A DNA stretch of 64,000 nucleotides, from contig JAQVVR010000006.1 of assembly GCA_028698875.1 (NCBI GenBank), forward strand, positions 46,924 through 110,923, written 5' to 3'. The position numbers were made by a program, and so were the translations under genes. Below are positions 4,484 through 43,548 of this stretch, piece by piece (the first letter of the stretch is position 1; every line of letters begins with the position of its first letter). The DNA is from Candidatus Izemoplasmatales bacterium. Lineage in GTDB: Bacteria > Bacillota_I > Bacilli_A > Izemoplasmatales > Hujiaoplasmataceae. The notes beneath the pieces are model-generated. The model was not told the origin of the DNA, ran no database searches, and saw nothing but the letters and a program-made list of their open reading frames with translations.

Positions 4484-5137
4484 ATGGAAAAAACAGTAAT
4501 TGCATTTAATAAAGAAGTATGGAGAATAACCTGGAAGGGAATTAAACAAAATTTTGTAATATACTTTGTATTACTATCAATTTCGCTCGTTGCTTTAGCT
4601 ACGATTATTTTGGCGCCGATGGCGATTAGAGTATTAGTTGGCATGCATGAGATGCTAATTGTTGAGGGGAAAATTGATTATCGAAAATTACTTTCTCAAG
4701 CAGATGATGACAAAAATTATTTTAAAGTACTTCTAGTCATTATCGTTGAATTGGTCGCCATCGCCGGCGGAACAATTATGTTTATTGTCCCAGGGATTGT
4801 CATCGCTTTATCGCTTGTGCCAGTTAATTACTTATTATATAAAAAGATGAATCCGTCAATAAGCGCCCTTGTTACCACTTCAGTGGAAACGATGCGCGGA
4901 CAAAAAACCCGATTATTTCTCTCATTACTAATTCCATCGCTTGGTTTTGGAATCATCTATGCTGTTTTAGGCGTCGGAATATACTTATTGAATCTAGTGT
5001 CAATCTTTTTAACAATACCATTGTTATTAGTTGTGATTGCGGTTTCGTTATTTGCCATGATGTATTTCTTTATTATGCTTGTGGCTTTTGCTCGTAATGT
5101 CTGTGAAAAACCCGCCCAACCAACATTGACGGCATAA
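4484..5137 (+). CDS. Hypothetical polytopic membrane protein (about 5-6 TM)
   Basis: Hydrophobic segments throughout; GGAGGT RBS. No recognisable family. Confidence 0.6.
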   Translation: MEKTVIAFNKEVWRITWKGIKQNFVIYFVLLSISLVALATIILAPMAIRVLVGMHEMLIVEGKIDYRKLLSQADDDKNYFKVLLVIIVELVAIAGGTIMFIVPGIVIALSLVPVNYLLYKKMNPSISALVTTSVETMRGQKTRLFLSLLIPSLGFGIIYAVLGVGIYLLNLVSIFLTIPLLLVVIAVSLFAMMYFFIMLVAFARNVCEKPAQPTLTA

Positions 5138-5160
5138 CTTTTTTTGAAAGGTCTGATTGG

Positions 5161-5922
5161 ATGAACGCTCTTGTGACTGGTGCCTCAAGTGGAATTGGCA
5201 AAGCAATCGCCGAAGAATTGGCGAAAAAAAAAATAAATCTATTCCTTGTTGCTCGCCGACAGGCAGAACTAGATGAAATCAAAGTATCACTTGAGTCACG
5301 ATACGGAATCAAGGTTTTTGTTAAAACCTTTGATTTATCTACCGAAGCAAACTGCTTTGCTCTTTTTGAAGCGTGTAAAAACGATCAGTTAGAAATTGTC
5401 ATCAATAATGCTGGGTTTGGATGCATTGGTTTGTTTGAAAATATTGAGCTTGACACGGAATTAAAAATGCTCCGACTTAACATTATGAGTGTTCATATCC
5501 TGACAAAACTGTTTGTGAGGTCAATGAAACAAGGCGTTATTTTAAATGTCGCAAGTATGGCCGGCTTCATTCCAACGCCAAACATGGCCGCTTATGCGGC
5601 TTCGAAAGCATACGTATATAACTTCAGCGAAGCAATTAATTATGAATTAAAACGAACTAAAAAGAAAGTTCGCGTTTTATCACTATGCCCAGGGCCAGTT
5701 AACACGAATTTTGCTAATGTTGCGGGGGCAAAAACGGAATTTAAAGGAATGAGCGCCGAAAAGTGTGCAAGAATCGCCGTCCGTGGCATTGAAAGACACA
5801 GACATCATATTATTCCCGGGTTAGGAATGAAACTGACAAAATTTTTTGTTCGCTTTCTTCCGTTGGGGATAATTTTACCGATGGCCTTTATGATTCAATC
5901 AAAAAAGGATGAGATTTCCTAA
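5161..5922 (+). CDS. Short-chain dehydrogenase/reductase (SDR) family oxidoreductase
   Basis: N-terminal TGASSGIGKA Rossmann motif, NNAG, and a YxxxK-type active-site region (AASKAY). Confidence 0.85.
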   Translation: MNALVTGASSGIGKAIAEELAKKKINLFLVARRQAELDEIKVSLESRYGIKVFVKTFDLSTEANCFALFEACKNDQLEIVINNAGFGCIGLFENIELDTELKMLRLNIMSVHILTKLFVRSMKQGVILNVASMAGFIPTPNMAAYAASKAYVYNFSEAINYELKRTKKKVRVLSLCPGPVNTNFANVAGAKTEFKGMSAEKCARIAVRGIERHRHHIIPGLGMKLTKFFVRFLPLGIILPMAFMIQSKKDEIS

Positions 5923-37440: not shown

Positions 37441-38097
37441 ATGTATACTGCATTGATTGTTGCCGCAGGCAGCGGTTCCCGAACTAAATTACCATTTAAC
37501 AAGATGTTCTATGAAATTAAAAAGAAACCGCTGATTATGTATTCAGTCGATCGGTTTTTAGCTGATTCGGATTGCGAAGAGGTTGTTATTGTTCACGCAA
37601 ATGTCGACGCTTCGCGAATGACTACATTAACAAAAAATATGGTAAAAATCAAGTTGACCGTCGGGGGCACAACTCGACAAGGAAGCGTTTATGCGGGGTT
37701 AAAACTTGCGAAAAGCAAATATGTATTAATTCATGATGGGGCGCGGCCTAACATCAGTAAAGCAAGTATCGACAATTTAAAGCGAGCAATGCTTGATCAA
37801 GGCGCGGCGACGCTTGCGATCCCGATTAAAGATTCATTGGTTACTGTTGAGAACAATTTTGTGACAGAATTTATCAATCGCGATACAACATATTTGGTTC
37901 AAACGCCACAAGCATTCCTTACCGAAGACATTCTTAAGGCTCATCTTTTAGCCAATAATTCGGGAACAGTTCATACTGATGATGTGTCCGTATATTTGGA
38001 TAAATTTAATAAAGAAGTTAAAATCGTGCTTGGCGACGAAGATAACATTAAAGTCACAACAAAAACCGATCTGCAACTTATGGAGGCCTTATTATGA
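37441..38097 (+). CDS. ispD: 2-C-methyl-D-erythritol 4-phosphate cytidylyltransferase
   Basis: IVAAGSGSR...P motif and IspD length. Confidence 0.88.
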   Translation: MYTALIVAAGSGSRTKLPFNKMFYEIKKKPLIMYSVDRFLADSDCEEVVIVHANVDASRMTTLTKNMVKIKLTVGGTTRQGSVYAGLKLAKSKYVLIHDGARPNISKASIDNLKRAMLDQGAATLAIPIKDSLVTVENNFVTEFINRDTTYLVQTPQAFLTEDILKAHLLANNSGTVHTDDVSVYLDKFNKEVKIVLGDEDNIKVTTKTDLQLMEALL

Positions 38098-38585
38098 TTA
38101 AAATTGGTTTTTCTAAAGACATTCACCCCCTTCAAATAGGGAGGCCATTTATCCTCGGGGGAATCAAAATTGAACACGATAAGGGACCGATTGGACACTC
38201 TGACGCTGATTGCTTATTACATGCAATTTCGGAAGCGTTGCTTGGCGCTTTAGCTTTAGGAGATTTAGGAAAATTTTTCCCTGATACCGAACCCAAATAT
38301 AAGAATTATGATTCGGCTTTGATTCTTCAGGAAATCTTCAATTACGTTGAAAGCAAAGGATATATGATTGGCAATTTGGATTGCATGGTTTCGCTTGAAA
38401 AACCCTTACTAAGACCATATATTGATGATATGCGTCGTCGTATTGCCGATATTCTTCGTACCGATATTGCGAGAATATCGATTAAAGCGACGACGTTCGA
38501 AGGTCTAGGAATTGTTGGGGAAGAAAAAGCCATAATTTGTGAAGCTGTCGTCTTGCTGGAAAACGATCTGATTTGGGGAATATAA
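38094..38585 (+). CDS. ispF: 2-C-methyl-D-erythritol 2,4-cyclodiphosphate synthase
   Basis: IGHSDADCLLHAISEALLGA metal-binding motif. 4-nt overlap with ispD. Confidence 0.9.
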   Translation: MIKIGFSKDIHPLQIGRPFILGGIKIEHDKGPIGHSDADCLLHAISEALLGALALGDLGKFFPDTEPKYKNYDSALILQEIFNYVESKGYMIGNLDCMVSLEKPLLRPYIDDMRRRIADILRTDIARISIKATTFEGLGIVGEEKAIICEAVVLLENDLIWGI

Positions 38586-38587
38586 CC

Positions 38588-38617
38588 GGCAGGACGAAAT
38601 TCGTCCTGTTTCTTTTA
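38588..38617 (+). terminator. Rho-independent terminator after ispF
   Basis: CAGGACGAAATTCGTCCTGTTTCTTTT. Confidence 0.75.
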
Positions 38618-38689
38618 TACAACAAGTCATTTTTGTTATGATATTTGCGAAGATATGATAAAATAGTAGTGCATCGGAGTTGATAAAAC

Positions 38690-38974
38690 ATGATTGAAAC
38701 CGAATTTGGAGAATTTGAACTAATAAAAAATCATCGAGACGCTTTCATTCTGGATGATTTTAACAAACGCTATATAGATGTATTTGATATATATCCATAT
38801 ATCGTTGGCGATTATTCGGCGGGAATTTTACGATTAAAGGGATTCACGAAGAACGGAAAAACGAGTAACTTCCGAATGATACCAGATTATTTAATGGAAT
38901 CATGTGCCCTCAACTGTCCTTATTACATCTTAAAAAATCCGAATTTTAATCCTAGCAAAAAACGCGATTCGTGA
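38690..38974 (+). CDS. yutD: YutD-family protein (DUF1027)
   Basis: FELIKNHRDAF...YIVGDYSAGILRLKGF pattern of the Firmicute YutD family. Confidence 0.6.
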   Translation: MIETEFGEFELIKNHRDAFILDDFNKRYIDVFDIYPYIVGDYSAGILRLKGFTKNGKTSNFRMIPDYLMESCALNCPYYILKNPNFNPSKKRDS

Positions 38975-38987
38975 ACCGGGTGAGATT

Positions 38988-39221
38988 GTGACTTACGAAG
39001 AGATAATTGAAGAAATCCAAGCCGTACTCAGTCTTGTGCGTCCGTACCTACAAAGAGACGGCGGCGATGTTAAATACATTAAATTTGAAGACGGAATCGT
39101 TTATGTTGAATTAACCGGAGCTTGTGTTGGCTGCGGTGGTTTTGAAGACACGATGCGAGAAATGATTGAAGAAACATTACTTGAACGAGTTCCTGGTGTA
39201 ATCGGTGTCGAACATATATAG
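38988..39221 (+). CDS. NifU-like Fe-S cluster assembly domain protein (Nfu C-terminal domain)
   Basis: LVRPYLQRDGGDV...ELTGACVGCG motif. GTG start. Confidence 0.8.
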   Translation: MTYEEIIEEIQAVLSLVRPYLQRDGGDVKYIKFEDGIVYVELTGACVGCGGFEDTMREMIEETLLERVPGVIGVEHI

Positions 39222-39265
39222 CAAAACAATTATCAACCCACACTTTTTGTAAAAGGGGGATCATC

Positions 39266-39595
39266 ATGAAGAAAGGCGATCTTGTCAAAGGCCGAGTAAT
39301 GAGTATTAAATCATACGGAGCGTTTGTAAAAATCAATGATGAATTTGATGGATTGGTCCACATTTCTGAGATTAGTGATGGCTTTGTTCGTAGCATTAGC
39401 GATTTCATTAATGTTGGCGATGTTGTCGATTTGGTTGTCCTAAGCGTTAACAAAGACAATAAAATTAGTCTTAGTTTTAAGCGGGCACAACTAAATCACA
39501 AAAAGAAATATCAACAAATTGAATTAAAAAGCGGGTTTCAACCGCTGGGTGATAAATTGCCAGAGTGGATTGCGGAATATTCAAAAGAAGAATAA
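39266..39595 (+). CDS. S1 RNA-binding domain protein (YugI/GSP13-like)
   Basis: GDLVKGRVMSIKSYGAFVKIND...GLVHISEI S1 motif. Confidence 0.8.
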   Translation: MKKGDLVKGRVMSIKSYGAFVKINDEFDGLVHISEISDGFVRSISDFINVGDVVDLVVLSVNKDNKISLSFKRAQLNHKKKYQQIELKSGFQPLGDKLPEWIAEYSKEE

Positions 39596-39661
39596 ACAAC
39601 ACAAGGTAAAGCAATTTTTAAGTATTGAGCGTTAGTAAGAATTGATATCAGCAAATAGACC

Positions 39662-39689
39662 TTTACATCCATAATCAATGTGCTATAAT
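39662..39689 (+). promoter_or_regulatory. Promoter of the T-box leader (TTTACA-16-TGcTATAAT, extended -10)
   Basis: TTTACA at 39662-39667 and TGCTATAAT at 39681-39689. Confidence 0.55.
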
Positions 39690-39694
39690 ATAAC

Positions 39695-39918
39695 CAAATC
39701 AATGAACGGAGAAGTACGATGCTCGTTTGATCATAGCGAATGGGGAGATGGTGAAAGCCCCACGATCAGATCCATCGAAATAACACCGGGAGAGACGGAA
39801 GAACAAAGTAGAACCGTCCGCACATCTGCGTTAAAGATGCTGAGTGCCGAATATTATTTCGGAACAAAGGTGGTACCACGGTTGATAATCGTCCTTTTTT
39901 TGGACGATTTTTTATTTT
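39695..39918 (+). promoter_or_regulatory. T-box riboswitch leader, probable Asn (AAC) specificity, upstream of alkD-like + asnS
   Basis: Conserved T-box sequence AACAAAGGTGGTACCACGG (39862-39880) lies immediately 5' of terminator hairpin AATCGTCC-TTTTTTT-GGACGATT plus T-run (39885-39914). Upstream are GGTGAAAGC and GGGAGAG stem-I-like elements and a candidate specifier AAC in ...GAAATAACACC... ORF-track item 39678-39920 is this leader, not a gene. Confidence 0.65.
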
Positions 39919-39932
39919 AAGGAGGTGGAATA

Positions 39933-40634
39933 ATGTTGATTCTTGAAGAACTAAAAGCAGATCAACGGGTCAATAATGCAAACCCGCTGTCAAAATTTCA
40001 CAAAACCGGAGTTGGTGAATATCAACATGGGGATGTATTTTGGGATATTCCGATACCAAAGATTCGCCGCGTTGTCAAAAATCATTATCAGGATGTTTCG
40101 TATGACGATATCGATATTTTGCTGGCCTCGAATGTTCATGAAGTCCGTCTTTGTGGATTATTGATACTTACGGAACTGATGAAAACCATTAGCGACTCGC
40201 AAAAACCAAGACTAGTAAATTATTATCTTGAACACCTAGATCAGATTAATGGGTGGGATCTGGTTGATCTCTCGGCACCCGCCATCTTAGGGACATATAT
40301 TTATGAAGTCAAAGACAGCGGTATTCTTGATGTGCTTGCCAAGTCGGATAATCTTTGGCATCGACGCATAGCCATAGTTGCAACTTTGAAATTAATTAAA
40401 CATAATGAACTTAATCCAACGTATCGAATTGTTAAAAAACTCATTAATGATCAAGAAGATTTGATTCACAAGGCATGTGGATGGATGCTTCGGGAGGCCG
40501 GCAAGCAAAATCGACCACGATTGGATCACTTTTTACGAGACAATTATTCCCAACTCTCACGCACCACATTGAGATATGCAATCGAAAAACACGATGAATC
40601 AGAACGGAAAGCATTTTTGAAAGGGAACTTTTAG
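39933..40634 (+). CDS. DNA alkylation repair enzyme, AlkD/AlkC-like HEAT-repeat DNA glycosylase family
   Basis: About 230-aa all-helical protein with pfam DNA_alkylation-like spacing (WDLVDLSAP...[11 protein letters not shown]...ACGWMLRE). RBS AAGGAGGTGG. Confidence 0.7.
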
Positions 40635-40645
40635 GAGGGGTAAAG

Positions 40646-42034
40646 ATGGATATTACCATTAAAGAATTATATCAAAAATATTTAGAATCAGCGGGGAAAC
40701 ACGTTACAATCTCTGGCTGGATTCGTAACAGTCGAGCCCAAAAAGAGTTTGGATTTATTGATTTAAACGACGGATCGTTTTTTGAAACGATTCAAGTTGT
40801 ATATGAAGAAAACGAGGTATCAAATTTTAAGGACATTCAGAAATTTAGGGTTGGTTCCTCAATTACTGTCGAAGGAATTCTTTCCGTCACGCCCAACATG
40901 AAACAGCCATTTGAAATTAAAGCGACAATGATTACTTTGGTGGGAGACAGTCCAGAGAATTATCCGATTCAACCGAAACGACATTCTCGTGAATTTTTAA
41001 GAGAGAATGCGCATTTGCGGATGCGGACGAACCTATTTTCGGCTGTTTTTCGCGTCAGATCGGAAGTGTCTTATGCCATTCATAGTTTTTTCCATGACCG
41101 GAACTTTGTTTATGTACACACGCCAATTGTTACCGGCTCAGATGCAGAAGGCGCAGGCGAAATGTTTAAAGTGACTACGCTTGATATTGAGAAAATACTA
41201 CAAAGCGATGCCAAAGCCATTGATTATTCGAAAGACTTTTTTGGTAAGGCGACTAATCTAACGGTGTCGGGACAACTTCAAGTAGAAACATATGCGATGG
41301 CATTTCGCAATGTGTATACTTTTGGACCGACTTTTCGAGCGGAAAATTCAAATACGCAGCGCCATGCATCGGAATTTTGGATGATTGAGCCCGAAATCGC
41401 TTTTGCTGATTTACATGATGACATGCGGTTAGCTGAAGAAATGGTCAAATATGTTATTAGGTATATATTGGAACATTGTTCCAAAGAAGTCGATTTTTTC
41501 AATGATTTTGTCGAGAAAGGGCTGCGCTCTAAACTTGAGAAAGTAGTCAATTCTGATTTTCAAGTTGTCACTCATCATGATGCGATATCTATTTTGAAGG
41601 CAGCCAAGGAACAATTTGAAAATCAACCCGAATACGGAGAAGATTTAGCTACTGAACACGAAAAATACCTAACTAAATATTTCGATGGACCGGTGTTCGT
41701 CATAGACTGGCCAAAAGAAATTAAAGCATTTTATATGCGCGTTAACCCCGATGGAAAAACTGTCGCGGCGATGGATTTGCTTGTCCCCGGATCAGGTGAA
41801 TTGATTGGCGGATCACAACGCGAAGAACGACTTGATGTTTTAGAGAAAAAGATGCAAAACTTACATATCGACAAAAGTAATTATTGGTGGTATCTTGATT
41901 TGCGCAAGTATGGCGGATGCCCACATGCCGGATTCGGATTAGGACTGGAACGAATGATTATGTATGTTACTGGTATTGATAATATCCGTGATGTGATTCC
42001 GTTCCCAAGAACACCAAAGAATTGCGAGTTTTAA
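40646..42034 (+). CDS. asnS: Asparagine--tRNA ligase
   Basis: N-terminal OB anticodon-binding domain plus class IIb core ([38 protein letters not shown]). Confidence 0.9.
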
Positions 42035-42039
42035 TTATC

Positions 42040-42075
42040 ATGGCAACCAGAGCCTAAAACCGGTTGCCTTTTTTC
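42040..42075 (+). terminator. Rho-independent terminator after asnS
   Basis: GGCAACCAGAGCCTAAAACCGGTTGCCTTTTTT. Confidence 0.75.
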
Positions 42076-42105
42076 ACAAGGTATAAGAATTAAGGGGGAA
42101 TAATA

Positions 42106-43548
42106 GTGAAGAAAGCTATGCTTCTTATGATTGGATTGGCATTAAGTATGATATTTATTGGCTGTACTCCTGGAGAACAAACAACGGCATCGGAATTGTC
42201 GGTTACGGAACGGGTTCAGGCGCTTCAAAACCCATATATGATTATGCTATTTATCACCGAAGACGCGACAACATCAGTTGGGATTAATTTTGAGTTGCCG
42301 ACAAATTCGGATGGTTACGTCGAGTATCGCTTATTAGGAAATTTAGAATTTGTTCGTCTCTCGGCAACGAAAAAGGCGACAACTGTTGGATCAAATTTGG
42401 TATATTTGTATGAAAAAAAGATATCTAATTTACTGCCCGATTCAATATATGAATATCGCATCGGTGGGGGAAATGATTTATATGAAAGCAACACTTATCA
42501 GTTTAAAACCGCCCAAACCAATGAAACGGAAACGGTTTTTATGTTGTTATCAGATCCACAAGGTAGCGACTCAATTGATTATATGACGTATGCAAACAAC
42601 GTGATAAGAATCAGCGAACAAGCACAAAAAAATGTCGATTTTGTGATGTTTACCGGTGACGTTGTCAACGATGATGATAGCCGGTCCCAGTGGAACCTGT
42701 TGTTCAAATACTCCTCAATATTTTCGTATAATATTCCGGTTGCCGCAACAGCAGGAAACCACGAAACGGGATCAATATTTGAGTCACAAGTTCAAAACAT
42801 CGAACTTGATGGTTACTACAATTTGCCAAATAACGGACCGACTTATAACGATTTCGATGAATTGGAAAATGACCAGCGCACCTCAACGTTTGATCAAGGT
42901 AAAACGTATAGTTTTGATTATGGATACGGTCATTTTGTCGCCATTGATACCGAATTGTTTTACGGCGACACGGGTATTAATGGTGTTGTTGATGAAGAAA
43001 ATATTGCTCTATTCAATTCTTGGTTGGTCGCTGATTTAGGGGCAAATGCAGACAAATGGATTATTGTTTATCTCCATCGCGGACCATACGCATTAACTTA
43101 TGATTCGTATAATGTCCGGCAACGGTTGACACCAATTTTTGATCAATATGGCGTTGATTTGGTCATCTCTGGACACGATCATCGTTACTCACGAGCGGTT
43201 ATCTCACAAGGGACAATGATCGATTTTACAACTGCGGACACCTATTTAAATGGTAATATTAGTTTGATATTGGATGGCGATTTCACAAGAAACTTTAATG
43301 ATTATAGTAGCGGGCTTGGAGTCACGTACTTTGTCGGAAACTCTTCGGGGACAAAGTTTTATGGTGACACAGCCGAGCCGGAAATGGCTGTCACTTATTT
43401 ATACTATGGTGAAAACGCAGTGATCCCGTTTTTTACAGTCACGGAAACCGCGATTGAAGTGGTTTCTTATCTGATTGAAAAATCAGGAAACACGGCGATT
43501 TTCCCGGATTCAATATCAATACTTGAATCGTTCATAATACGCAAATAA
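42106..43548 (+). CDS. Purple-acid-phosphatase-like metallophosphoesterase lipoprotein (extracellular phosphoesterase)
   Basis: Lipobox FIGC|TP. A PAP N-terminal Fn3-like region (YEYRIGGGN...YQFKTA). Calcineurin-like motifs GDVVND, AGNHE and GHDHRY. GTG start behind AAGGGGGAA. Confidence 0.75.
   Translation: MKKAMLLMIGLALSMIFIGCTPGEQTTASELSVTERVQALQNPYMIMLFITEDATTSVGINFELPTNSDGYVEYRLLGNLEFVRLSATKKATTVGSNLVYLYEKKISNLLPDSIYEYRIGGGNDLYESNTYQFKTAQTNETETVFMLLSDPQGSDSIDYMTYANNVIRISEQAQKNVDFVMFTGDVVNDDDSRSQWNLLFKYSSIFSYNIPVAATAGNHETGSIFESQVQNIELDGYYNLPNNGPTYNDFDELENDQRTSTFDQGKTYSFDYGYGHFVAIDTELFYGDTGINGVVDEENIALFNSWLVADLGANADKWIIVYLHRGPYALTYDSYNVRQRLTPIFDQYGVDLVISGHDHRYSRAVISQGTMIDFTTADTYLNGNISLILDGDFTRNFNDYSSGLGVTYFVGNSSGTKFYGDTAEPEMAVTYLYYGENAVIPFFTVTETAIEVVSYLIEKSGNTAIFPDSISILESFIIRK

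Follow-up and report, generated by a model that had tools for sequence, protein, structure and literature searches.

Why should a leader of the kind that reads asparagine tRNA stand in front of a DNA repair gene? The question is raised by a 64,000-nucleotide (nt) stretch of contig JAQVVR010000006.1 (assembly GCA_028698875.1, positions 46,924 to 110,923) from a Candidatus Izemoplasmatales bacterium, referred to here as the window. In it, an asparagine-type T-box leader is followed by an alkD-like gene, related to DNA alkylation repair glycosylases, and then by asnS, the gene for asparaginyl-tRNA synthetase (AsnRS). A first, sequence-only reading of the window had claimed that the T-box controls both genes. 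We read the region 39,300-42,300 directly and ran an Rfam scan (cmscan) over the whole 64 kb; coordinates are those of the window, and the leader, the two genes and their expression signals all lie on the + strand. We consider it highly probable that a canonical tRNA-Asn attenuation T-box governs an alkD-asnS operon in which alkD is, most economically, a hitch-hiker.

A canonical T-box leader with an asparagine specifier

The sole Rfam match above its gathering score in the window was the T-box model RF00230. It scored 106.9 bits at 39693-39899, where 93 is the gathering score (E 1.3e-22), with all model positions (1-219) aligned, which bears out the leader proposed in the sequence-only reading. 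Related leaders scored 86-119 bits with the same model. Stem I, Stem II, the IIA/B element, Stem III and the antiterminator were all present. In the cmscan alignment the landmarks of Stem I fell at their consensus positions: the UGA...GA of the basal GA/kink-turn motif, AGUA and GAA in the specifier loop, the AG bulge AGCGA and the distal loop GGUGAAA. The IIA/B element carried the conserved CGUUA. No landmark of a class I transcriptional T-box is missing from the leader.

A thermodynamic fold of the whole leader (z -0.96) did not reproduce Stem I, as is usual for T-boxes with their non-canonical motifs, so the structure was judged by the covariance model and by RNAalifold over 27 distinct related leaders. 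RNAalifold recovered the base, middle and upper helices of Stem I together with Stem II, IIA/B, Stem III and the terminator, which is conserved in the relatives. Compensatory double changes were found in 24 of the 37 predicted pairs, with the Stem I helices among those supported.

The specifier was placed by cmscan at 39782-39784, where the sequence is AAC (Asn); after it come A39785, which is the conserved purine, and then the closing helix CCGG. On the 3' side the specifier loop reads G-A-A-A-U-A-A-C-A (39777-39785), and counted from its 3' end AAC takes up bases 2-4. The same bases of the specifier bulge are those that the TBDB rule assigns to the specifier, and for Asn the preferred specifier is AAC (PMC7778990). 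AAC is invariant in the 27 leaders, and in the RNAalifold structure it belongs to the unpaired stretch that separates the middle helix of Stem I from the basal one, so that the AAC first picked out by eye now sits in the specifier loop on both the covariance and the comparative evidence.

The T-box sequence itself, AACAAAGGTGGTACCACGG, was found at 39863-39881 both by reading the sequence and by cmscan. Within it, in AAAGGUGGUACCAC, lies a UGGU bulge (39871-39874), which would pair with the 3' NCCA end of the tRNA; the relatives have either UGGU or UGGC. It is followed by an intrinsic terminator, AATCGTCC-T7-GGACGATT (8-bp stem, 7-nt loop) and then the T-run TTTTATTTT, at 39887-39918. One segment, AAUCGUCC, serves twice, as the 3' arm of the antiterminator and the 5' arm of the terminator, and the overlap of the two structures stands as first described. 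Folded alone, the 3' segment gave the terminator hairpin in both the minimum free energy and the centroid structures (-13.9 kcal/mol). The antiterminator segment alone folded weakly (-3.8 kcal/mol), as expected because the switch needs the tRNA to hold the antiterminator. One distance had to be corrected: the T-box sequence had been placed 8 nt upstream of the ribosome-binding site, but it ends about 37 nt upstream, and it is the T-run of the terminator that abuts the site.

Upstream of the leader we found a sigma-70-type promoter at 39662-39689, TTTACA separated by 16 nt from the extended -10 TGcTATAAT (11 of 12 consensus positions plus the TG). It was kept in eight of the nine related leaders examined, GC-rich genomes included. 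An open reading frame (ORF) of 80 amino acids (aa) at 39678-39920, overlapping the leader, was set aside as a by-product of the RNA element.

The alkD-like gene and its product

A Shine-Dalgarno sequence, AAGGAGG (39919-39925, read from the sequence), stands 7 nt upstream of the ATG at 39933 that opens the alkD-like ORF (39933-40634, 233 aa). This start is 33 nt downstream of the end of the Rfam match. The product matched PF08713 (DNA_alkylation) with 184.2 bits against a gathering score of 21, over profile positions 1-212 of 213; the first gene after the leader is AlkD-like and not an aminoacyl-tRNA synthetase (aaRS), as had been claimed. By sequence, its only solved relatives were Bacillus cereus AlkD entries (39 bits with phmmer, about 25% identity). 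An AlphaFold2 model built on a 10-sequence alignment (predicted local distance difference test, pLDDT, 91.9; predicted template modelling score, pTM, 0.88) had 14 helices. When it was compared with the PDB by Foldseek, the top eight matches were all B. cereus AlkD (template modelling score 0.72-0.77), followed by the Enterococcus faecalis protein of entry 2B6C and by AlkD2. The product is predicted to be an all-helical HEAT-like (ALK) repeat solenoid. In P0032 and P0096, close homologues of this AlkD subfamily, a PF01687 (riboflavin kinase/flavokinase) domain is fused to the AlkD part, 356 aa in all.

B. cereus AlkD (PDB 3BVS, 3JX7, 5CL3) is a non-base-flipping alkylpurine DNA glycosylase. The window protein shares with it the PF08713 family, the HEAT-like repeat fold and the catalytic residues, W108, D112 and W184 aligning to Trp109, Asp113 and Trp187; it differs in being only about 25% identical and in belonging to a distinct, widespread subfamily (archaea, candidate phyla radiation (CPR) bacteria, Gammaproteobacteria, Bacteroidota). 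As background for this subfamily we scanned GTDB with the AlkD alignment. At least 80 loci were listed, 41-49% identical and spread over archaea, Patescibacteria, Gammaproteobacteria, Bacteroidota and other groups; no Izemoplasmatales were among the matches listed, which served as background only. The W-D-W triad and R145 were invariant in 17 asnS-linked AlkDs, in one unlinked AlkD of the same clade (L008, described below) and in 80 listed unlinked homologues, which come from archaea, CPR bacteria and Proteobacteria. None of the 80 listed loci had asnS within 4 kb and none had a T-box core motif, so linkage to asnS or to a T-box is not a property of the AlkD family. Constraint on AlkD was measured as about 55 invariant columns, synonymous sites being saturated in most pairs.

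The conserved place of the gene, first in an operon predicted to sense tRNA-Asn, could also be taken to mean that its product has left DNA repair for a role with tRNA-Asn or AsnRS, acting on a modified tRNA base or as an RNA- or aaRS-binding partner. The linked AlkDs do diverge faster than the AsnRSs beside them (35-86% against 67-89% identity), as might follow from such a change. We nevertheless hold it to be extremely improbable: the active-site residues are invariant in the 18 clade members exactly as in the unlinked homologues, the predicted fold is that of AlkD, the subfamily overwhelmingly lives without asnS or a T-box, and the literature searched had no AlkD link to T-boxes or to queuosine salvage. 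Because the active site is strictly conserved and the subfamily lives without asnS across bacteria and archaea, the protein is likely still a DNA glycosylase and not Asn-related. The idea of a link between Qng1 and AlkD in queuosine salvage was also followed up and given up, since the literature search returned nothing relevant.

asnS follows alkD in one predicted operon

The next gene, asnS (40646-42034, 462 aa), encodes an asparagine--tRNA ligase by two equivalog-level family models, NF003037 (672.9 bits, cut-off 414) and TIGR00457 (620.7 bits, cut-off 342.6), and contains the PF00152 and PF01336 domains. Models for AspRS, LysRS and AsnA all scored below their cut-offs on this product. Both the AsnRS and the AlkD-like protein have a 100% identical counterpart in a Candidatus Izemoplasmatales metagenome-assembled genome. 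Its Shine-Dalgarno sequence, AGGAGGGG (40633-40640), overlaps the alkD-like stop codon TAG (40632-40634). That asnS comes directly after the glycosylase gene was correctly noted at the outset, the gap being 11 nt and not 12. Across the relatives this gap is 1-11 nt, and in most of them the asnS Shine-Dalgarno sequence (GGAGG) is encoded by the final alkD codons, ...Phe-(Lys/Arg/Gln)-Glu-Glu-stop. Judging by this arrangement, asnS is probably tightly and translationally coupled to alkD.

The junction also holds a small AU/GU-rich hairpin, UUUUUGAAAG-GGAA-CUUUUAGGAG (40614-40637, +), which runs from the final codons of alkD over the stop codon into the asnS Shine-Dalgarno sequence; a 61-nt segment across the junction folded with a z-score of -2.7. 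The hairpin could make asnS translation dependent on ribosomes finishing alkD, or it may be a mere by-product of the codons for the conserved C-terminal Leu-Lys-Gly-x-Phe.

We found no terminator in the 11-nt gap or, convincingly, within alkD, and no conserved promoter there, which upholds the uninterrupted transcript first proposed. After asnS lies a terminator-like hairpin, GGCAACC-13 nt-GGTTGCC followed by T6 (42042-42074, fold -11.1 kcal/mol), which the pattern scan had missed, its loop being longer than 8 nt. Weak promoter matches do occur inside alkD, for example TTGCAA-17-CATAAT at 40378-40406 (9 of 12 positions), and if asnS were expressed mainly from a promoter of its own there, the T-box would effectively control the glycosylase gene only. 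Such matches occur at the rate of chance (14 in the operon region against 10.1 +/- 3.2 expected). In two GC-rich relatives, L002 and L092, in which AT-rich matches seldom arise by chance, the one + strand promoter-like site in the stretch is that before the leader, with none from there to the end of asnS. The clear terminators in these two loci are that of the leader and one after asnS; L002 also has weak terminator-like matches, about as many as chance would give. With the asnS Shine-Dalgarno sequence overlapping the alkD 3' end, gaps of 1-11 nt, and the same leader driving asnS directly in sister lineages, a separate asnS promoter of this kind appears very unlikely. The leader-alkD-asnS layout has the predicted anatomy of a single operon, with one promoter upstream and one terminator downstream.

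The layout is conserved in related loci

The layout was found in about 17 related Izemoplasmatales-type loci, with asnS 67-89% identical and GC contents of 38-57%. Searching with AlkD homologues, we found the leader (with AAC), alkD and asnS in this order in L001 (AlkD 73% identical), L004 (54%), L005-L007 (52%) and L002/L003 (46%). The L004 contig begins within the leader, and its T-box core is still seen at 14-25. AsnRS homologues led in addition to L089, a complete 2.0-Mb genome (OW818673.1), and to L092. In L090, L091 (PPCM01000001.1) and L093 the same leader stands with asnS directly downstream and no alkD between. On whether orthologous asnS genes carry the same inserted gene, the comparison was informative in both directions: the related loci do, and the sister lineages have the leader directly before asnS. 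The two-gene operon was described at the start as unusual; this stands in that a repair gene is the passenger, and it falls in so far as a one-off was meant, since the layout is kept in so many loci.

To control for query bias, a metagenome collection was scanned with a leader-only DNA motif, from the junction of Stem I and Stem II. The 29 loci obtained comprised 15 with alkD then asnS, 10 with asnS directly, two with asnA and two that were too short. The distance from the T-box end to the first start codon was 33-44 nt in both layouts, whether alkD or asnS came first.

The two asnA genes, at L105 2051-3148 (-) and L115 2239-3336 (+), stand behind the same leader family, sharing the Stem I/II junction motif; asnA is, beside asnS, the classical target of Asn T-boxes. 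They were identified by eye as aspartate-ammonia ligase-like, of about 335 aa from the likely true start. Their position behind the leader is independent confirmation that this leader family is specific for Asn.

One AlkD of the same clade lies away from asnS (L008 2834-3541). It is 53% identical to the window protein and ends in ...FREE like the linked copies; its gene stands after one for an RHS-repeat protein and before one for a GGDEF/HD protein, and no T-box was found with it. It appears to be a relocated copy.

Probable evolutionary history of the insertion

Trees were built by neighbour joining (NJ) on Kimura distances and bootstrapped; they are not maximum-likelihood trees. In the AsnRS tree (26 sequences) the alkD-carrying loci form two clades split by groups that lack alkD (bootstrap 92% and 82%): clade A, with 12 sequences including the window (96%), and clade B, with five (67%). 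In the AlkD tree, calculated with the 80 listed homologues as outgroups, the asnS-linked AlkDs and L008 form one clade with 66-67% bootstrap, and the internal topology of this clade mirrors the AsnRS tree. GC content ranges over 32-57% across all loci, and the GC content at third codon positions (GC3) of alkD follows that of asnS in every genome with alkD, from 0.35 to 0.87 (0.35/0.35 in the window, 0.87/0.90 in L002). The match in GC3 marks alkD as a long-term resident and not a recent import. Since the AlkD and AsnRS trees are congruent and the GC3 of alkD is fully ameliorated, we favour a history in which alkD was captured once, long ago, in the space between leader and asnS, was then inherited vertically together with asnS, and was lost at least twice and relocated once (L008).

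Several points weigh against this account or against parts of the reading as a whole. NJ support for monophyly of the linked AlkDs is only moderate (66%), and the mean AlkD identity between clades A and B, 39%, is no higher than that to the outgroups (40-41%), so that two independent captures are possible. The AlkD of L089 is about as similar to AlkDs of Thioglobus and Woesearchaeota as to other linked AlkDs; in the tree it falls weakly with clade A, and pairwise scores are insufficient to settle its orthology. A weak internal asnS promoter inside alkD is possible in AT-rich genomes. No tRNA gene, and so no tRNA-Asn discriminator base, was found in the window or in 11 related loci; G73 is the usual discriminator of bacterial tRNA-Asn, and the U or C of UGGN could pair with it. 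Finally, alkD has been retained over a long time, in which asnS has diverged to as little as 67% identity; selection for the coupling could account for this, and the hitch-hiking reading would not have predicted it.

Such selection is conceivable in that asparagine or amino-acid starvation brings growth arrest, in which alkylation damage is not diluted, and a T-box could then act as a starvation-inducible promoter for a repair glycosylase in small, regulator-poor genomes. In E. coli, expression of alkylation repair is raised in stationary phase. The layout has been kept over deep divergence in sequence and base composition with the AlkD active site invariant, and the two alkD-carrying clades, if they were independent captures, would represent convergence. 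Yet alkD has been lost in at least two lineages that still have leader and asnS, and this repeated loss argues for the coupling being dispensable. The L008 gene does without the T-box elsewhere, no other listed AlkD locus of the 80 is linked to asnS, and asparagine is not singled out over other amino acids. We therefore regard adaptive coupling as possible but unlikely. That AlkD is kept as first cistron by any functional tie to asparagine or tRNA-Asn status, be it starvation-triggered repair or retargeting to RNA, tRNA or AsnRS, we judge distinctly doubtful.

The flanks of the locus differ in their stability. Upstream in the window (37441-39595, +) lie ispD, ispF and genes for YutD-like, NifU-like and small S1-domain proteins, an order shared only with L001; in the other alkD-carrying loci this place is taken by prs or by a gene for a methyltransferase or an RDD protein. 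The right flank (Band_7, RDD, NfeD) is constant across loci. The leader-alkD-asnS block has, on this pattern, been moved or rearranged relative to its left flank.

Proposed mechanism and relation to known T-box operons

Taking the hitch-hiker account, we propose that the ancestral layout was leader-asnS, and that alkD was captured between the two, most likely once and early in an Izemoplasmatales sub-lineage. Transcription would start at the strong extended -10 promoter and, by default, would be terminated at the hairpin 39887-39909 and its U-run. Uncharged tRNA-Asn (anticodon GUU) would pair with AAC in Stem I and its free NCCA end with UGGU, stabilising the antiterminator, upon which RNA polymerase would read on into a bicistronic alkD-asnS transcript ending at the terminator after asnS. 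We infer, on what we consider sound grounds of sequence, that uncharged tRNA-Asn co-induces a putative DNA repair glycosylase, as the sequence-only reading had suggested. The expression of alkD would in this way be slaved to the charging of tRNA-Asn. A promoterless alkD would have hitch-hiked on a reliably expressed essential operon, a non-adaptive origin that implies no Asn-related function. The switch itself is ordinary, with no departure from known T-box biology; only the cargo is unusual.

This is seen in comparison with known systems. The T-boxes (RF00230) of Firmicutes asnS and asnA genes have the same architecture, AAC specifier, terminator/antiterminator logic and aaRS target as the leader described here. 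The supplement of Wels et al. 2008 (PMC2494555) lists one with an Asn specifier next to BA4802, which is the AsnRS of Bacillus anthracis. The plain layout is also present among the relatives of the window, in L090, L091 and L093 for asnS and in L105 and L115 for asnA. The window differs from it in having a gene unrelated to amino-acid metabolism between leader and asnS.

Genes for cysteine and asparagine tRNA ligases are often second in T-box operons (Wels et al. 2008, PMC2494555). Here, too, asnS is the second cistron of a predicted operon with an Asn T-box. To our knowledge, the first gene of the known operons of this type comes from the same amino-acid pathway, as with cysE before cysS, whereas here it is a homologue of a DNA repair glycosylase.

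T-boxes on functionally unrelated genes have also been reported: in the 8% remainder of T-boxes, Wels et al. 2008 (PMC2494555) noted 17 T-box-preceded genes that are not evidently connected with amino-acid metabolism. The window resembles these cases in that a canonical T-box would drive an unrelated gene. Those cases are mostly singletons, whereas the arrangement described here is conserved in a lineage and has the cognate aaRS in the same predicted transcript. We found no alkylation-repair or glycosylase gene in the text or supplements of that study (PMC2494555), and no paper linking T-boxes with AlkD or alkylation in the literature searched.

Neighbouring genes and annotation

Directly after the asnS terminator, at 42106-43548 (+), lies a gene for a 480-aa purple-acid-phosphatase-like metallophosphoesterase (PF16656 and PF00149) with a lipoprotein-type N-terminus (…LSMIFIGC). 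Like that of alkD, its distribution at this locus is patchy: it was found in most loci with alkD and in L093, which lacks alkD, whereas L090, L091 and L004 are without it. This gene, too, seems to have been inserted beside asnS in a lineage-specific way.

Other genes of DNA metabolism were seen near the leader in some relatives. A Y-family polymerase (IMS) and YolD pair lies 2.7-3.3 kb upstream of it in L089, L090 and L092 (in the first ~650-1200 nt), and RmuC (L091 2507-3706) is immediately upstream of the L091 leader. In B. subtilis, too, asnS has dinG, dnaD and nth as neighbours. The nearness of DNA-damage genes to the asnS leader may be coincidence.

Some public gene calls run into the leader. 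The 299-aa AlkD call in L001 (5001-5900) starts at 5001, inside the leader (4954-5156), and the real start is near 5190. P0002, P0142, P0192 and P0237 likewise have calls running through the leader or suspect N-termini. Several AsnRS entries of 483-527 aa may carry similar false N-terminal extensions.

Implications

Our understanding of how T-boxes or AlkD act is not changed by this finding. It does give a caution for function prediction from T-box specifiers, the first gene after an Asn T-box here not being one of Asn metabolism. The reading predicts that AlkD-type repair capacity would rise as tRNA-Asn charging falls. If AlkD were in fact tied to tRNA-Asn, a T-box regulon would reach into the repair or modification of nucleic acids, and if the two clades with alkD were independent captures, they would be convergent evidence for selection. 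On the account we favour, the locus would offer a clear case from nature of promoter capture, with the captor lodged between a riboswitch and the essential gene that it controls. A T-box regulon can, on this account, take in a gene from outside amino-acid metabolism and keep it stably, throughout a sub-lineage and through large shifts in base composition, and not just as an oddity in the annotation of a single genome.

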